64,000 bases of DNA from NCBI GenBank assembly GCA_965279375.1, contig OZ257156.1:128001-192000 (forward strand). Direction: 5' to 3'. The notes beneath the pieces were generated by a model. The model did no database searches. It had not been told where the DNA came from and saw only the letters and a list, made by a program, of their open reading frames with translations. Positions 42,577 through 48,614 of this stretch are shown here, piece by piece. The first letter of the stretch is position 1. Each line of letters begins with the position of its first letter. A program made the translations under genes and the position numbers. Source of the stretch: Gemmatimonas sp. (GTDB taxonomy: Bacteria > Gemmatimonadota > Gemmatimonadetes > Gemmatimonadales > Gemmatimonadaceae).

Positions 42577-44091
42577 CTGTTACTCGTCGCCGCATTCGCC
42601 CTCGCGCTCGTGGTGCCCCCGTCCAACGGACTCCCCTCGGGAGAACCGTCGGCGGTCGGCATGTCCGCGGCCCGCCTCTCCACGATCGATCGGGTCGTGC
42701 AGCGTGGGCTCGACGCCGGCGGCTACCCGGGCGCGTCGGTCGTGGTGGGACGCAAAGGGTTCAGCGTCTGGTCCCGCGGTTTCGGGGCGCTCGACTGGAG
42801 CGGCAAGAACGCGGTCACGGCCAACAACAGCATCTACGACCTCGCCTCGCTGACCAAAGTCGTCGGCACCACCACGGCGATCATGGTCCTCTATGACCAG
42901 GGCAAGATCGATCTCGACGCCCCGGTCTCGCGCTACCTCCCCTCCTTCACCGGAGGGCTCAAGGACCAGGTCACGGTCCGCCACCTGCTCACGCACCGCG
43001 CCGGCCTTCCCGCCGGCCGAGAGCTCTGGCGCATCGCCAATACACCGGCTGAAGCGCGCGAAGCGGTGCTTAACGCCCCGATCCAGTGCACGCCGGGCGT
43101 GTGCTACGAATACTCCGATCTGGGCGCGGACATCCTCGGCTTCGTCGCCGAAGCTGCCTCCGGCGTCACGCTCGACGTGTTCCTGCGGCGCAACGTGTTC
43201 GAGAAGCTGGGGATGACCGACACGCACTACCGCCTCGACGCCATCGACATCGAGCGGACGGCCCCCACGGAAATCGCTCCGCCGCGTGGCTATCCGCTGC
43301 GCGGTGAGGTCCACGACGAGAATGCGTGGGCGCTCGGCGGGATAGCCGGCCACGCGGGCTTGTTCAGCACCGCGTCGGATCTGTCCGTTTTCGCGCAAAT
43401 GCTGCTGGACGGGGGCACCTACAACGGCGTCCGCGTCATCGCCGATTCCACGGTCAGCCTGTTCACCAAGCGCGCCGCCGGACACCGCGCGCTTGGCTGG
43501 GATACCTGCGTCGGCGGTGCCGGCTGCGGGCAGTACCTCTCGGAGCGCGCCTACGGGCACACCGGATTTACGGGCACGTCGCTCTGGATCGATCCGGATC
43601 GGCACATGTTCGTCATCCTGCTGACGAACCGGGTGCACGCGGCCCGCGCACGGCGTCCCTCCAAGGTCATCGCTGACGTCCGCAACGACCTCGCCGACGC
43701 GGCCGTCCTCGCCGTCATGGACGACCCCAACGGCGTGTTGGCCATGCCGGCCAGCTTCCGCGCCGACAAGGCGGAAGACTGGAACCGTCCGTTGCGTTCG
43801 AGTCGCGCCCGCAGCTCCGCCGCTCGTCGGCGCGCGGCCGCGGCCAGGCGTGCCAAATCCGGCAAGGCCTCCGCCAAGTCGTCATCGAAGTCATCTTCGA
43901 AGTCATCTTCGAAGTCGTCCGCCAAGCCCGCCTCGGCGAGCTCTGCCAGAGGCTCGAAGTCGTCCAAGGCATCCGCCAGCAAGTCGACGAAGGGCAAGTC
44001 GTCGGCGAAGTCTTCGAGCAAGTCGACATCCAAGTCGACGGCCAGGAAGAAGCCGCCCACCAAGTCATCGCGGTCAGGCAAGACGCGCTGA
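42577..44091 (+). CDS. Serine hydrolase (beta-lactamase/PBP-like) with a long Lys/Ser/Ala-rich basic C-terminal tail
   Basis: SLTK (SxxK), YSD, GHTG; the hydrophobic signal stretch begins at CTG 42577, upstream of the first GTG (42610). Confidence 0.85.
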   Translation: MLLVAAFALALVVPPSNGLPSGEPSAVGMSAARLSTIDRVVQRGLDAGGYPGASVVVGRKGFSVWSRGFGALDWSGKNAVTANNSIYDLASLTKVVGTTTAIMVLYDQGKIDLDAPVSRYLPSFTGGLKDQVTVRHLLTHRAGLPAGRELWRIANTPAEAREAVLNAPIQCTPGVCYEYSDLGADILGFVAEAASGVTLDVFLRRNVFEKLGMTDTHYRLDAIDIERTAPTEIAPPRGYPLRGEVHDENAWALGGIAGHAGLFSTASDLSVFAQMLLDGGTYNGVRVIADSTVSLFTKRAAGHRALGWDTCVGGAGCGQYLSERAYGHTGFTGTSLWIDPDRHMFVILLTNRVHAARARRPSKVIADVRNDLADAAVLAVMDDPNGVLAMPASFRADKAEDWNRPLRSSRARSSAARRRAAAARRAKSGKASAKSSSKSSSKSSSKSSAKPASASSARGSKSSKASASKSTKGKSSAKSSSKSTSKSTARKKPPTKSSRSGKTR

Positions 44092-44131: not shown

Positions 44132-44509
44132 ATGACCGACGAAACCATGTCCGCCCAAGGCGAGACCACGGACTCAATCCCGACAGATGCGATCCCGGTG
44201 GCTGAGGGTGGTGCTATCTCGGCCGATCAAGCGCGCCTCGTGCTTCGTCGCGTGAAAGATCCGGAGCTCAACCTCAACATCGTCGATCTCGGGCTCGTCT
44301 ACGACATTACCGTCGAAGGCACCGCCGTGCGTGTCGACATGAGCCTCACCTCGCCCGGCTGCCCGTCAGGCCCGGAGATCATGGGAGAGGCCGAGCAGCA
44401 GTTGAAGACCATCCCGGGTATCGGCGAAGTGACCATGAATCTCATCTGGTCGCCGCCCTGGACACCGGAGCGCATCGAGCCGCGCGTGCGCGCGTACATG
44501 GGGTTCTAG
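44132..44509 (+). CDS. DUF59/SufT-like metal-sulfur cluster assembly factor
   Basis: DPELNLNIVDLGLVY, LTSPGCP, WSPPW; GGAGG RBS. Confidence 0.9.
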   Translation: MTDETMSAQGETTDSIPTDAIPVAEGGAISADQARLVLRRVKDPELNLNIVDLGLVYDITVEGTAVRVDMSLTSPGCPSGPEIMGEAEQQLKTIPGIGEVTMNLIWSPPWTPERIEPRVRAYMGF

Positions 44510-45270
44510 CGCTCCGCGTGTCGGCCGGCGAGTGCATCCATCAGGTCGAACTCCTCGTTCGATCGCAGATCCACGGCCTTCGCGCGACGCAGCTCAGTGA
44601 ATGACGATTGTCCGAAATCGCTGTTGATGAGGATGGCGCCAACGAGGACGAGATAGCGCGCATTGTTGTACGTGGTCTTGGATGCGAGTAGGTCGATACG
44701 CGCCGAGATCGCCTCGTTCATCACTTCCGTGGCTTCCTTGAGCGGATGCGTCGCCGCCAGAACGCGCGCACGTTCCCGTAGCAGAATCTGCTCGATGGTG
44801 TTCTGCTGATAGTCCAGCGTGTTCACATCGTCGGGAATGATGTGTCCCGACTGGAGCTTCGCTAACGCTGCCCGACATGCTCCGCAACAGCCGCTCGGCT
44901 TGTGCTGACCCTCGCGGAGGATCTGCCCGAGATTCCCTTGCGTGTCGATCCCAATGTGCGGCGCGTGATAAATGAACACCGCCCCATCGTCGGGCACGTG
45001 CCCGGCAAATGCGCCCATTCCCGTGAGTCCTGTAAACGGGAATCCGTCGAGGCCGCCCATTTTGAAAGGCCCCAGCATCTCGTAGGCGCGCTTGGGATAC
45101 TCGATGCTGTTCACGTCATCGCTGCAGATGCTGTCCGCCAGCATCACTCGATTGGGCGGCAGCCCAAAGCGCGTCTTGAACAGGTCCAGCAGCCGATCCA
45201 CGGATTCCATCGTGGTCATGGCGTTCGGATAGTGTCGGCGAACCGTCGCGGCAAAATCGTCTGTAGTCAT
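44506..45270 (-). CDS. LCIB/LCIC-like (theta-class) carbonic anhydrase
   Basis: SICSDD, FKMGGLDGFPFTGLTGMGAFAGHVPD, APHIGI, REGQ…CCGA, giving a putative Cys/His/Cys Zn site. Confidence 0.8.
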   Translation of the reverse strand: MTTDDFAATVRRHYPNAMTTMESVDRLLDLFKTRFGLPPNRVMLADSICSDDVNSIEYPKRAYEMLGPFKMGGLDGFPFTGLTGMGAFAGHVPDDGAVFIYHAPHIGIDTQGNLGQILREGQHKPSGCCGACRAALAKLQSGHIIPDDVNTLDYQQNTIEQILLRERARVLAATHPLKEATEVMNEAISARIDLLASKTTYNNARYLVLVGAILINSDFGQSSFTELRRAKAVDLRSNEEFDLMDALAGRHAER

Positions 45271-45272
45271 GA

Positions 45273-46295
45273 TCACATCAGAATGTTGTTGTGAGGCAGC
45301 AGCGGAGCGGGAATGTCCGCTTCGCCCAACATCTCTCGCAAGTCGATCTCGATCGTGCGTGTCATCGCTGTAATCGGCACATCATTGACGTTGCCCTCGA
45401 ACGGATTCTCGGTCGCTTCGCCGATACGCTCCATCATCAGGAACACCCACGCAACCAGCGCCGAAAAGGGAATGGTGAGCCATGCGAAGCCAGCGCCAAG
45501 TTTGGCGAACTCACTGAGCATCCCGAGCGGTACCAGCCCGTTGAACAACCGGATGAACATCAGGTTGACCGTCGCGTACTGACGCGGATACGGAAAGTTC
45601 TTGATGCGTTCGCACTTCCCTTGCTGCGTGTAGAGATCCACGAGCAGGTTCTGCATCTCCACCTGTCGCAATTCCGACAGCAGTCCGCGCGCATGCAGTT
45701 CGCGGAGGTCGCTCGACTGAAGCGCGATCAGCTGCGTCGCCACGTTGGACTTTCCCAGTACCCGTGACTTCTCGTCGGCACTGATCAGTCCCGTCAGCGC
45801 GTCGGCGAGTGTGGCGCCATCCTGCTCCTCGACAGAAAACTTGACTCTGTATTCGCGGTTCTGCTCCTTCTGCATGTTCTCCCACCCTCGTGGCGCGCGC
45901 AGCTGAAAGCGCAACGCGTGCAACCACGCGAGGTGTCGGTGCATCAACCGCGTGTGCGCCGCGTTGAGGTCGGCTGATCTGTTCGCGCTCTCGGCGCTCT
46001 CAACGGCGACGAAATCCATGGCCATGATGCCCCACGACCGGCTGGTGTTGACGATCGCACCGTAGATCTGGCGAGCCTCCCACAAGCGATTGTAGCTGGC
46101 GTTGTTCTTGAAGCCGACCATGAATGCGACGGCCGTTCCGACAACGGCGATCGGCACCCACGGGATCGCGAGCCAGCTCCAGCCGAGCGCTTGATGGAGC
46201 GCCGTGGGTATCGCTCCCACGAGCAGGTAGAACAGAATGTCGCGACGAGTCCAGTAGAGGACTTCCCGAAGTGTGAATCGGCGACCGGTATGCAT
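45273..46295 (-). CDS. Bestrophin-family anion channel
   Basis: GFKNNASYNRLWEARQIYG, CERIKNFPYP, ENPFEG…DVP. Confidence 0.9.
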   Translation of the reverse strand: MHTGRRFTLREVLYWTRRDILFYLLVGAIPTALHQALGWSWLAIPWVPIAVVGTAVAFMVGFKNNASYNRLWEARQIYGAIVNTSRSWGIMAMDFVAVESAESANRSADLNAAHTRLMHRHLAWLHALRFQLRAPRGWENMQKEQNREYRVKFSVEEQDGATLADALTGLISADEKSRVLGKSNVATQLIALQSSDLRELHARGLLSELRQVEMQNLLVDLYTQQGKCERIKNFPYPRQYATVNLMFIRLFNGLVPLGMLSEFAKLGAGFAWLTIPFSALVAWVFLMMERIGEATENPFEGNVNDVPITAMTRTIEIDLREMLGEADIPAPLLPHNNILM

Positions 46296-46337: not shown

Positions 46338-46709
46338 TCACGCGCCGGTCGAGGCGCGCGCTGCCAATGGATGACCAAGCGCGAGGATCACGAATGCCAG
46401 CACTACCACCCAACTTTCCCCAAGCAATCCCTTCCAATCGTGCAGGTGTGCGAACTGCACCAACAGAAACATGATGACGCCGAGGTTCATCCAACTGCCC
46501 CAAACAAAGGTCTTGGGGAAGAACATCATCACGCACCCAGCAAACCCGATCACACCAAGCAGTTGTCGAAGGGGAGCGCTTGTTCCGAATGGCTCGAAGA
46601 ACTTCACCATCGCTTCGCTGCCGGTGACCATTCCCCAGCCAGCGCGGAGGCTCATCCACGCCATCAACAGCATCAGTACGCCACTCAGCGCCCGCAGCAC
46701 CATGTTCAT
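46338..46709 (-). CDS. DoxX-like small membrane protein
   Basis: Four hydrophobic segments, FFPKT. Confidence 0.6.
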   Translation of the reverse strand: MNMVLRALSGVLMLLMAWMSLRAGWGMVTGSEAMVKFFEPFGTSAPLRQLLGVIGFAGCVMMFFPKTFVWGSWMNLGVIMFLLVQFAHLHDWKGLLGESWVVVLAFVILALGHPLAARASTGA

Positions 46710-47111
46710 TTCCATCGCAAGATCGGGTTGCGGGGCTCGGCGCCGAGCCCCGGGTTTCTCTTCCCTGGGCCGCGCTGCTCGCCCGGCGAAATTGTACTGC
46801 CGTGGCTGCGAGCTCGGCGGCGGCGCCCGTTGCCGAACGCGAGTTCTGCGCGACCGCCGCTTCACCGGGTACGTCGACTGGACGTTGGCGCGTCCAGGTC
46901 GGCTGCCGTCGCTGCGCCCGCCGTCGACCGCGATTCCCGTGCGGTTATCGGATACGCTGCTGACCGATTGTTGCCATTATCATCGGCCGCAAGGAGATCA
47001 TTGCGGCAGAGGCAACGGCGTTGGTGTGAACGGAAGCGGACGAGCAGGCACCGCGCACACGCCGCGCAGCGTCGTTCCGGCAATTGATGGACGCCGCGTT
47101 TTACGGCGGGG

Positions 47112-48614
47112 TCATTTGGCTGGGCCTTCGAGCAGCTTCAGTCTGGCCTTTGCGTCCGCATTGTCTGGATTGAGGCGAAGCGCGCGTCGGTACATCGCTG
47201 CGGCCTGATCGCGGCGGCCCGCTGCCTCCAACATCTCGCCATAGCTCTCGCTCAGATTGTCGTCGGACGGCCAGAGCGCGATCGCCGCGCGGAACGTCGA
47301 CAGAGCATCGGTCACGCGCCCGTTCTCGGAAAAATGATATCCGAGGTTGTTCAGATCATTCGCGCTCAAGCTATAGCTCGTTGTGTCGTCCTTGTTCTGT
47401 AGCAGGGCAACGAAGGCCGCATCCTCCCCCTCGGCCGCGAGCGTGCGAGCGTAAATACGCGTCAGCGATCGAGGCGTAGACATGGGCGCGCGACCATTGA
47501 GCATCCGCAATGCCGATAGCCCCATCCTGTAGACATTCTCACTCTCTGTATTGTCGAAAATGACGACCGTCTGATCCGAGTCGAGATTCCGCATGAAGAT
47601 CGTGACGCACCCTGGCATGCCGCCGGCGTGCCACGCGATGCGGCCTTCCGAGCGGTCGCGGAAGATGAACCAGCCGAGCCCGAGGTCCGCCTCGCCCATG
47701 CCGCCGAAGTTCAGCCAGACGTGGACCGGCGTTCCGTCGGCCAGCTTCTGCGGCGTGACCGCCGAGTCCAGCGTCGCCGGCTTGAGCAAGCGGCCATCCC
47801 TGAGGGCCCGATCGAATCGCAGCATATCGCCGGTCGTGCTGACGATACCACCGTTGCCGTAGGTACGACCGTTGTAGTAGCTCTTCGCGCCGTCCAGGCG
47901 CGTGCGTTGGTTCGAAAACCGCAGCGGATACGCGTAGTTCTGCGCAAAAAGCGGCGTATCGGGACGGTTGATCAGCGCGCTCTTGAGATAGGTCTGTCGC
48001 ATACCGGCGGGGCGCAGGATGCGGCTTGCGAGATAGGCGTCGAACCGCTGGCCGGACCGCACCTCCACCAAACGCGCCAGCAACTGATAGCCGAGATTAC
48101 TGTACCACCATTTCTCGCCTTGCTTGAGCGCAGGTGACACGCCCGACGCCGCGATCGCTGGAACGAGATCGCGCATTTCCATCGGTCGACCGAGCGTCTG
48201 TGCATAGCTCGGCGCGATTTCCTGCTCCGACATTCCGGACGAATGCGAAAGCAATTGCCGAACCGTGACGCCCTTGTAGGGAAACTCCGGGACGTAACGC
48301 GCCAGCGGTGCGTCGAGAGCGATCGACCCGCGCTCGACCAGTTGGAGGATCGCCACGGCGGTGAAGAGCTTGCCGACCGACGCCATTTCGAACTCGGTAT
48401 CCGCGGCGTTCGGTCGCTGATTCTCGAAATCGGCATAACCGAACGACCGGGCGTAGATCACGCGCCCCTTCTCCGCGACAAGCACGTTGCCGTTTAAGCC
48501 ACCGCTGCTCGCGTGCGCCCCAAAGAAGGCGTCAAGCTTCGCTGCGCGGTCCTGCGCAGCGGCCGGGGATGGCAGAAGAATCAACAGCGCGGCGGCCAGC
48601 CAACGATTTCCCAT
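47112..48614 (-). CDS. Exported serine hydrolase (beta-lactamase family) with C-terminal TPR
   Basis: SVGK, LLSHSSG, YSN, WHAGG; TPR LNNLGY…YRRALRLNP. Confidence 0.85.
   Translation of the reverse strand: MGNRWLAAALLILLPSPAAAQDRAAKLDAFFGAHASSGGLNGNVLVAEKGRVIYARSFGYADFENQRPNAADTEFEMASVGKLFTAVAILQLVERGSIALDAPLARYVPEFPYKGVTVRQLLSHSSGMSEQEIAPSYAQTLGRPMEMRDLVPAIAASGVSPALKQGEKWWYSNLGYQLLARLVEVRSGQRFDAYLASRILRPAGMRQTYLKSALINRPDTPLFAQNYAYPLRFSNQRTRLDGAKSYYNGRTYGNGGIVSTTGDMLRFDRALRDGRLLKPATLDSAVTPQKLADGTPVHVWLNFGGMGEADLGLGWFIFRDRSEGRIAWHAGGMPGCVTIFMRNLDSDQTVVIFDNTESENVYRMGLSALRMLNGRAPMSTPRSLTRIYARTLAAEGEDAAFVALLQNKDDTTSYSLSANDLNNLGYHFSENGRVTDALSTFRAAIALWPSDDNLSESYGEMLEAAGRRDQAAAMYRRALRLNPDNADAKARLKLLEGPAK

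Follow-up and report, generated by a model that had tools for sequence, protein, structure and literature searches.

The closest described relatives of the locus reported here are the LCIB/LCIC proteins and the bestrophin-like channels BST1-3 of Chlamydomonas, in which the carbonic anhydrase (CA) lies on the N side of the membrane and the channel leads to the P side, with a BST flux directed from stroma to lumen (PMC6708349, PMC13159521). The bacterial unit is built from the same two protein families, shares this topology and likely has the same direction of flow. In contrast to the algal system, its two genes are adjacent, it comes without a pyrenoid or thylakoid lumen, and the other bacterial hosts that were checked are without a true RuBisCO. 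No compartment like the algal one, an acidic lumen with a second CA next to RuBisCO, is known in the bacterial hosts. In sequence, the bacterial CA resembles diatom PtLCIB more than Chlamydomonas LCIB (CrLCIB), and the channel is closer to the bacterial bestrophin KpBest than to PDB 7ek1, which we take to be plant VCCN1.

Transporters and cytoplasmic CAs are also combined in sulP-can operons and fusions, in which an anion transporter adjoins the enzyme and for which a role in HCO3- handling and pH control is proposed (PMC6458275). As in these operons, same-strand adjacency is conserved in the unit described here, and the genome under study carries a sulP-can pair of its own. The unit differs from sulP-can in having a bestrophin channel and not an SLC26/SulP secondary carrier, so that HCO3- accumulation is impossible, in a CA that is usually of the theta type, and in that fusions were not seen for LCIB and bestrophin. 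Thylakoid VCCN1 is likewise a bestrophin-like channel and is reported to modulate the pmf (PMC5074266), but it belongs to a plant organelle, is remote in sequence and has no linked CA. Our literature search returned no paper describing an LCIB-bestrophin pair from bacteria (subscription papers and supplements, which may name homologues, lay outside it), and no physiological role of bacterial bestrophins was found in the literature searched. The locus represents a real, widespread and apparently undescribed module of channel and CA, a variant of the transporter-CA operon.

The window, that is, the whole stretch of 64,000 nt analysed here (C1:128001-192000 of a Gemmatimonas genome), carries the pair on its minus strand (Table 1); the named loci and proteins nearest to it likewise point to a Gemmatimonas-like host. 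The bestrophin stop codon (TGA, 45275-45273) is separated by 2 nt from the ATG at 45270 that opens the 254-aa LCIB ORF, as the first-pass annotation had placed them; this ORF ends with a TAG at 44506, and the ORF listing offers an alternative GTG start at 45276 that overlaps the bestrophin stop. The Fe-S assembly gene on the left is convergent to LCIB, the two stops overlapping by 4 nt. On the other side, the DoxX-like ORF is located 42 nt upstream of the bestrophin gene on the same strand. Its own DoxX_2 match is weak (E 0.043), one member of its cluster reaches E 2e-5 (Pfam), and it clusters with ORFs upstream of bestrophin-LCIB pairs in 13/160 related loci. It is the probable first gene of the unit: while the channel/CA pair proposed at first pass is real, its reading as a two-gene unit gives way to a probably larger one. 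A promoter scan of the locus found no promoter, and the terminator-like sites, among them the hairpin next to the DoxX-like ORF, are not significant (2 seen vs 3.3 expected by chance). The serine hydrolase scores below all NCBIfam beta-lactamase cut-offs shown and is absent from the recurrent neighbour clusters listed for related loci; it is a passenger in the same inserted segment, outside the conserved module.

Table 1. Features at and around the LCIB-bestrophin locus, with positions in the window
Feature	Position	Strand	Basis
254-aa homologue of LCIB / theta-class carbonic anhydrases	44506..45270	-	PF18599
Bacterial bestrophin channel subunit, 340 aa	45273..46295	-	PF25539; neck T54/F58/F62
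Small DoxX-like membrane protein of 123 aa with 3 hydrophobic segments	46338..46709	-	DoxX_2 weak, neighbour clusters, hydropathy
GC-rich hairpin, directly upstream of DoxX-like ORF	46731..46752	.	terminator-like site scan
Serine hydrolase, beta-lactamase fold + TPR tail	47112..48614	-	PF00144 + TPR (Pfam)
Fe-S assembly gene (left flank)	44141..44509	+	PF01883
Gene on right flank of inserted segment	48740..49366	+	blastn of L299, L301, L302 vs window

In 3/5 same-genus genomes, blastn placed the PF01883 gene and the match to the right-flank gene, presumably signal-peptidase-II-like from its motifs, within ~600 nt of each other, so that the segment from 44506 to ~48700 was either inserted here or lost there; the remaining 2/5 were uninformative within 1.5 kb of the flanking genes. 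LCIB is present in 2/41 relatives and 4/201 family genomes, the own genome counted. All three unit genes are GC-poor (0.58-0.60 vs 0.653, sd 0.021) with ordinary GC3 (0.73-0.78 vs 0.765), and since GC3 is ordinary, composition alone does not demonstrate recent transfer.

The CA gene product matches LCIB_C_CA (PF18599) with 214 bits at a cut-off of 25 (Pfam), and its best PDB sequence matches are 6kfs (E 2e-28) and diatom PtLCIB4 5b5y (E 2.5e-26); Chlamydomonas LCIB 5k5w was matched at E 5.5e-11. Its AlphaFold model (pLDDT 86.8) aligned to 5b5y and 6kfs with a Foldseek TM of 0.77-0.81, and all 8 Foldseek matches with E <= 0.001 were LCIB-family structures (TM 0.62-0.81), compared with a TM of ~0.4 for classical beta-CAs. 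The motifs comprise C49-S-D-D, GGLDGFPFTG (72-81), H91, H105 (in PHIG) and C128-C129-G-A, and C49, D51, H91, H105, R119, C128 and C129 are invariant in 90/90 paired LCIB homologues, which bears out the family identity and the Cys/His/Cys set reported at first pass. Going by the alignment to PtLCIB4, C49, H105 and C129 are the probable Zn ligands, and H91 aligns with PtLCIB4 H88. The protein thus shares fold, Cys-x-Asp / His / Cys site and H88 equivalent with PtLCIB4 and 6kfs, but it is ~29% identical to them, bacterial, without a targeting peptide and linked to a channel. C128 of the CCGA motif is an extra invariant Cys specific to this clade; a more distant bacterial LCIB clade has SCGA where complete and no adjoining channel in 8/8 loci. 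Because hydropathy analysis revealed no hydrophobic 19-mer, the protein is probably cytoplasmic. Sequence and predicted structure together confirmed an LCIB/theta-CA with intact Zn-site residues, for which CA activity is predicted. A Flavobacterium homologue was reportedly among those tested in the LCIB structure paper of Jin et al. 2016. In vitro, some of the LCIB proteins that carry the Zn motif lacked activity (PMC5876011).

The channel ORF matches Bestrophin_2 (PF25539) with 163 bits at a cut-off of 27 (Pfam), and the sequence search retrieved KpBest 4wd7 at E 2e-22 and 7ek1 at E 7e-4. Its AlphaFold model (pLDDT 94.6) adopts the KpBest fold (TM ~0.91, normalised to target length) with the same layout of neck and aperture at 23-24% identity, in agreement with the bestrophin identity assigned at first pass. 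The neck is T/F/F, whereas that of KpBest, reported as a Na+ channel, is I62/I66/F70, with I66F shifting it towards Cl-; human bestrophins, with I/F/F, show a HCO3- permeation of 0.44-0.69 of that of Cl- (PMC8496536). The middle Phe is found in 102/102 LCIB-adjacent and 5/5 beta-CA-adjacent channels and also in 77/89 channels without a linked CA, making it a trait of the clade. At the first neck position this clade mostly has Thr, unlike the bestrophins studied, and the aperture residue is variable and uninformative. While no proof, the middle Phe favours anion conduction for the whole channel clade, and the anion-type neck together with the pairing with CAs of two unrelated classes (see below) points to bicarbonate as a permeant.

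The adjacency recurs in other genomes, in five named phyla. Scoring a same-strand bestrophin within 300 nt as a pair in the best 80 of 302 confirmed LCIB genome hits, we found 67/80 of these closest loci to be paired, with the channel upstream in 56 and downstream in 11, and no adjoining channel in 13/80. Among these best 80 of 302, pairs made up 47/59 loci in Bacteroidota, 10/10 in Gemmatimonadota, 5/6 in Acidobacteriota, 2/2 in Myxococcota, 1/1 in Nitrospirota and 2/2 in two others. Metagenome loci were paired in 45/80 cases, or in 32/49 where both sides have at least 500 nt. These counts are biased because the fetched loci are the closest hits. Even draws, each of which counts its centre genome, itself a pair carrier, gave 21/32 paired LCIBs in the family of Runella G240 (151 genomes), 3/4 in the own family and 1/4 in the family of Flavobacterium G243, the unpaired ones including the more distant SCGA-type clade. 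Against a rough chance expectation of 0.0003 per gene, and with kin being non-independent, the 21/32 in the G240 family show that LCIB-bestrophin adjacency is far above chance. Solo LCIBs share no neighbour gene, and LCIB had no match on plasmids. As to fusions, a word-indexed search, which is a weak test, yielded no LCIB relative in the range of 446-2000 aa, and a Pfam scan of 20 representatives, mostly long ones, detected no bestrophin domain. LCIB as a substitute for a missing beta-CA was rejected, as a beta-CA is encoded in 5/5 carriers tested and in 141/151 G240-family genomes; the own genome also has one.

Seen from the channel, the link is one-sided: the clade also lives without a linked CA. 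In the G240 family draw, 21/118 channel matches adjoin LCIB. The 110 fetched channels of this family adjoin LCIB in 16 cases, a beta-CA in 5, only an ion-transport gene in 8 and none of these in 81, and of the 8 outside the fetched set, 5 adjoin LCIB by coordinates; beta-CA adjacency was counted from the fetched loci, in a family with 226 beta-CA matches. LCIB-adjacent channels amount to 3/10 in the own family and 1/4 in Acidobacteriota, with no CA neighbour in 7/10 and 3/4, respectively. For the best 30 of 97 G243-family channels, the neighbour was LCIB in 1, a beta-CA in 1 and neither in 28, and annotated plasmid channel loci had a CA neighbour in 0/4. Further recurrent neighbours have to do with ions or pH: an upstream Ion_trans_2 gene, bearing a K+-filter-like motif, in 33/160 loci, Na+/H+ exchangers in 5/160 and TMEM175 in 3/160. 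In the family draw, only 7/22 of the K+-channel-like genes lie directly beside the channel. Unrelated DoxX, SnoaL-like and SDR genes share the block in some loci.

The best evidence for what connects the two proteins comes from exchange of the enzyme. A beta-CA directly adjoins the same channel clade in 5/110 and 1/30 loci. In a 76-row tree, the six channels concerned are spread over four places, at least three of which are forced by strongly supported branches. Their grouping into a single clade was rejected (AU p 2e-41; group picked after the first tree). Five of the partner beta-CAs are 55-86% identical to one another, the sixth (L321) is ~30% identical to those, and ordinary beta-CAs that stand in for LCIB share ~50% identity with the SulP-linked CA of the host. 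That unrelated enzymes of one reaction refill the slot is the strongest argument for CO2/HCO3- chemistry as the link, in line with the connection that the first-pass annotation had drawn for the channel. LCIBs have themselves been re-paired, as illustrated by loci L041 and L030, in which LCIB is 78% and the channel 38% identical. Patristic distances in the channel and LCIB trees correlate with r 0.13 over 90 pairs and 27/51 supported channel splits recur in the LCIB tree, leaving strict co-descent of LCIB and channel unsupported. Since partners are mixed and matched, coupling of CA and channel is probably through the shared substrate.

These observations are best explained by a modular operon of a cytoplasmic CA, LCIB/theta here and beta in some hosts, and an anion-leaning bestrophin. 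That the pair handles HCO3-/pH in some way appears likely; for the more specific reading as a valve through which bicarbonate made by the CA leaves the cell, so as to control pH or membrane potential, we estimate a probability of about 0.5. In such a valve, the CA would hydrate CO2 from respiration or diffusion to HCO3- and H+, a bestrophin in the cytoplasmic membrane would open and let HCO3- exit along the inside-negative potential, and the H+ would be retained in the cytoplasm. The cycle would amount to pmf-driven H+ entry or base extrusion, acidifying the cytoplasm and lowering the potential, and the K+-channel-like, TMEM175 or Na+/H+-exchanger neighbours could provide charge balance. One H+ being left inside per cycle, this would be a base-extrusion valve and not a pump. 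In a simple flux model, in which CO2 equilibrates across the membrane, the CA is inside and the driving force on HCO3- equals the pmf, HCO3- left the cell in 12/15 conditions (-60 to -150 mV; outside pH 6-10.5) and entered it in 3/15, at high outside pH and modest potential. With no RuBisCO at the outlet, a topology like that of the alga would yield pH and potential control. The likely use would be pH/membrane-potential homeostasis, for instance when cells face alkaline conditions or a high load of CO2/bicarbonate, with the pair as an accessory to housekeeping beta-CAs and not as a CO2-concentrating device. This agrees with pH control, named as a role at first pass, and with the pH role proposed for sulP-can microsynteny (PMC6458275). 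Against the valve reading stand the LCIB proteins that were inactive in vitro, the many channels with no CA neighbour, the 13/80 LCIBs with no channel, the presence of the neck Phe in unpaired channels too, the mostly Thr first neck residue, the 7/22 figure for the K+-channel-like gene and the unrelated genes in the block. A CA-driven pH valve is not described in the literature searched and would offer a clue to bacterial bestrophin function.

A possible but rather unlikely alternative is inorganic-carbon acquisition, in which HCO3- would enter through the channel and be equilibrated by the CA to serve PEPC or RuBisCO. In the present host, a phototroph with CBB genes, the pair would then belong to a carbon-supply system without carboxysomes. 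In the own genome, the stretch C1:608-612 kb holds a row of genes for form II RuBisCO (NF010002, 887 bits), FBPase and PRK; the genome also has two reaction-centre genes, PEPC, and SulP-betaCA and SbtA-PII-betaCA-LysR clusters, and Type II RuBisCO has been reported from Gemmatimonadota MAGs (PMC10581226). LCIB also lies upstream of PEPC in two, probably near-identical, metagenome loci (L127, L128), influx is possible under the 3/15 modelled conditions, and algal LCIB/C co-purifies with BST1/BST3 (PMC6708349). However, the unit is ~435 kb away from the cbb genes and absent at its site in 3/5 same-genus genomes; the only PF00016 match of the genome, at C1:608975, is outside the window, which as first noted contains no RuBisCO. 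PF00016 matches in 9/49 other LCIB carriers scored 128-230 bits, compared with 404 bits for the true RuBisCO. Of these 9, 6 were classified and all lie far below every RuBisCO cut-off, 5 of them best matching the RuBisCO-like OiaX, while the matches of G380, G356 and G407 were judged from score only, and some LCIB carriers are incomplete MAGs. With a true-RuBisCO-level match in 0/49 other LCIB carriers, a RuBisCO link in other hosts was rejected, the proposal of a counterpart to the pyrenoid CO2-concentrating mechanism (CCM) is weakened, and a CCM role is not general across hosts. A rhodopsin link was likewise rejected, as rhodopsin genomes were not enriched (3/21 vs 49/130). Moreover, being passive, the channel has no means of building up HCO3- against a normal pmf, and together with a cytoplasmic CA it would give efflux under an inward pmf, which argues against HCO3- capture, suggested at first pass, as a general function. 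A carbon-supply role may nevertheless apply to this host with its RuBisCO, PRK and reaction-centre genes.

It is improbable that CA and channel merely form a stress cassette, a mobile and jointly induced block whose members act independently. Most clade channels do stand alone (81/110), solo LCIBs have no common neighbour, DoxX, SnoaL-like and SDR genes occur in the same block, and the spread is patchy (4/201 in the own family). Yet both gene orders exist, LCIB has been re-paired with different channel subclades, and two beta-CA classes occupy the same slot at at least three places; such repeated replacement by an analogous enzyme indicates that the CA is not a passenger.

Similarly little credence can be given, jointly, to two readings with a different chemistry: that the CA only sets the gating pH/HCO3- of a Cl-, other-anion or cation channel, or that the enzyme of LCIB fold acts as a hydrolase on some other one-carbon compound, for instance COS, whose anionic product leaves through the channel. 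COS hydrolysis is known for some beta-CA-fold enzymes. The extra invariant Cys (CCGA) of this LCIB clade, set against SCGA in the distant channel-less clade, and the K+-channel-like and Na+/H+-exchanger neighbours would fit these readings, as would the report of KpBest, the only characterised bacterial bestrophin in the literature consulted, as a Na+ channel (PMC8496536). In contrast, the replacement of LCIB by ordinary beta-CAs, ~50% identical to the host's SulP-linked one, and a neck Phe that matches the anion-favouring state argue against them.

Highly doubtful is a reading of the pair as a bicarbonate-channel/CA metabolon of ancient bacterial origin, with the CA directly feeding or gating the channel. 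Such a metabolon would be a prokaryotic forerunner or a true functional twin of algal BST-LCIB coupling, and in this phototroph (form II RuBisCO, SbtA, SulP) it would take its place in a circuit that supplies carbon without carboxysomes.

The algal model hinges on HCO3- conduction by a bestrophin beside a theta-CA. Here, a small bacterial BST and LCIB come in one unit that is expressible in E. coli, and cultured hosts of the pair are found in Runella, Pedobacter, Emticicia and Flavobacterium.

The gene content of the host genome (G000) would make it a Gemmatimonas-like phototroph with Calvin-cycle potential, as judged from the RuBisCO/FBPase/PRK row and two Photo_RC genes. Its SbtA, PII-like, beta-carbonic anhydrase (CA) and LysR genes form a predicted second inorganic-carbon cluster, in which SbtA matched PF05982 with 371 bits and the beta-CA carried a twin-arginine-like leader, judged by eye. 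The second, distant bestrophin of this genome was ~29% identical, lay in sugar-metabolism-like surroundings and had no adjoining CA gene.

Features in the window and elsewhere in the host genome (C1, contig of G000)
Feature	Position	Loci	Remark
Serine hydrolase	window 42610-44091		
Form II RuBisCO, class 1 FBPase and PRK, consecutive	G000 C1:608498-611785	L310, L315	outside window
Two Photo_RC genes	G000 C1:3117089-3118746		
SbtA, PII-like gene, beta-CA and LysR gene	G000 C1:4813809-4816928	L390, L167	
SulP and beta-CA	G000 C1:535614-538014		third inorganic-carbon cluster
Second bestrophin	G000 C1:1002688-1003581	L004, L005	

Among the fetched loci (L-numbers), a second bacterial LCIB clade without a channel was found in L352-L356 and L363-L365, with the SCGA motif in all six fully read members. 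In L363 and L365, LCIB is followed by a 164-aa ORF with Cys-Pro-Thr-Asp, possibly a remote CA-like protein, for which the L363 copy gave no Pfam match. Solo LCIB genes were also seen immediately behind a membrane H+-pyrophosphatase (confirmed in L072; L359 is of similar appearance) and upstream of PEP carboxylase (L127, L128). The Pfam scan further revealed tandem LCIB domains in the long proteins P0131, P0135, P0140, P0169 and P0184, together with DUF1275, cNMP-binding, Na/Ca-exchanger or fibrillin domains; these proteins are probably eukaryotic, and some may be gene-model fusions.

The DoxX-channel-LCIB unit also occurred in loci L008, L010 and L088, from records labelled Flavobacteriales/Bacteroidota. 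Channel trees placed the L008 and L010 channels within Gemmatimonadota, and either transfer of the whole unit across phyla or mis-binning would account for the loci so labelled. A K-channel-bestrophin-LCIB block of Bacteroidota type was observed on contig L052, labelled Vulcanococcus (a cyanobacterium), which may be a binning contaminant.

In loci where the K+-channel-like gene does not adjoin the bestrophin, the gene directly after it often encodes a conserved ~130-aa protein with hydrophobic stretches (L373, L375, L376, L379, L380, L384, L387). Within the window, the serine hydrolase ends in a low-complexity Ser/Lys-rich tail built from short repeats (43700-44091).
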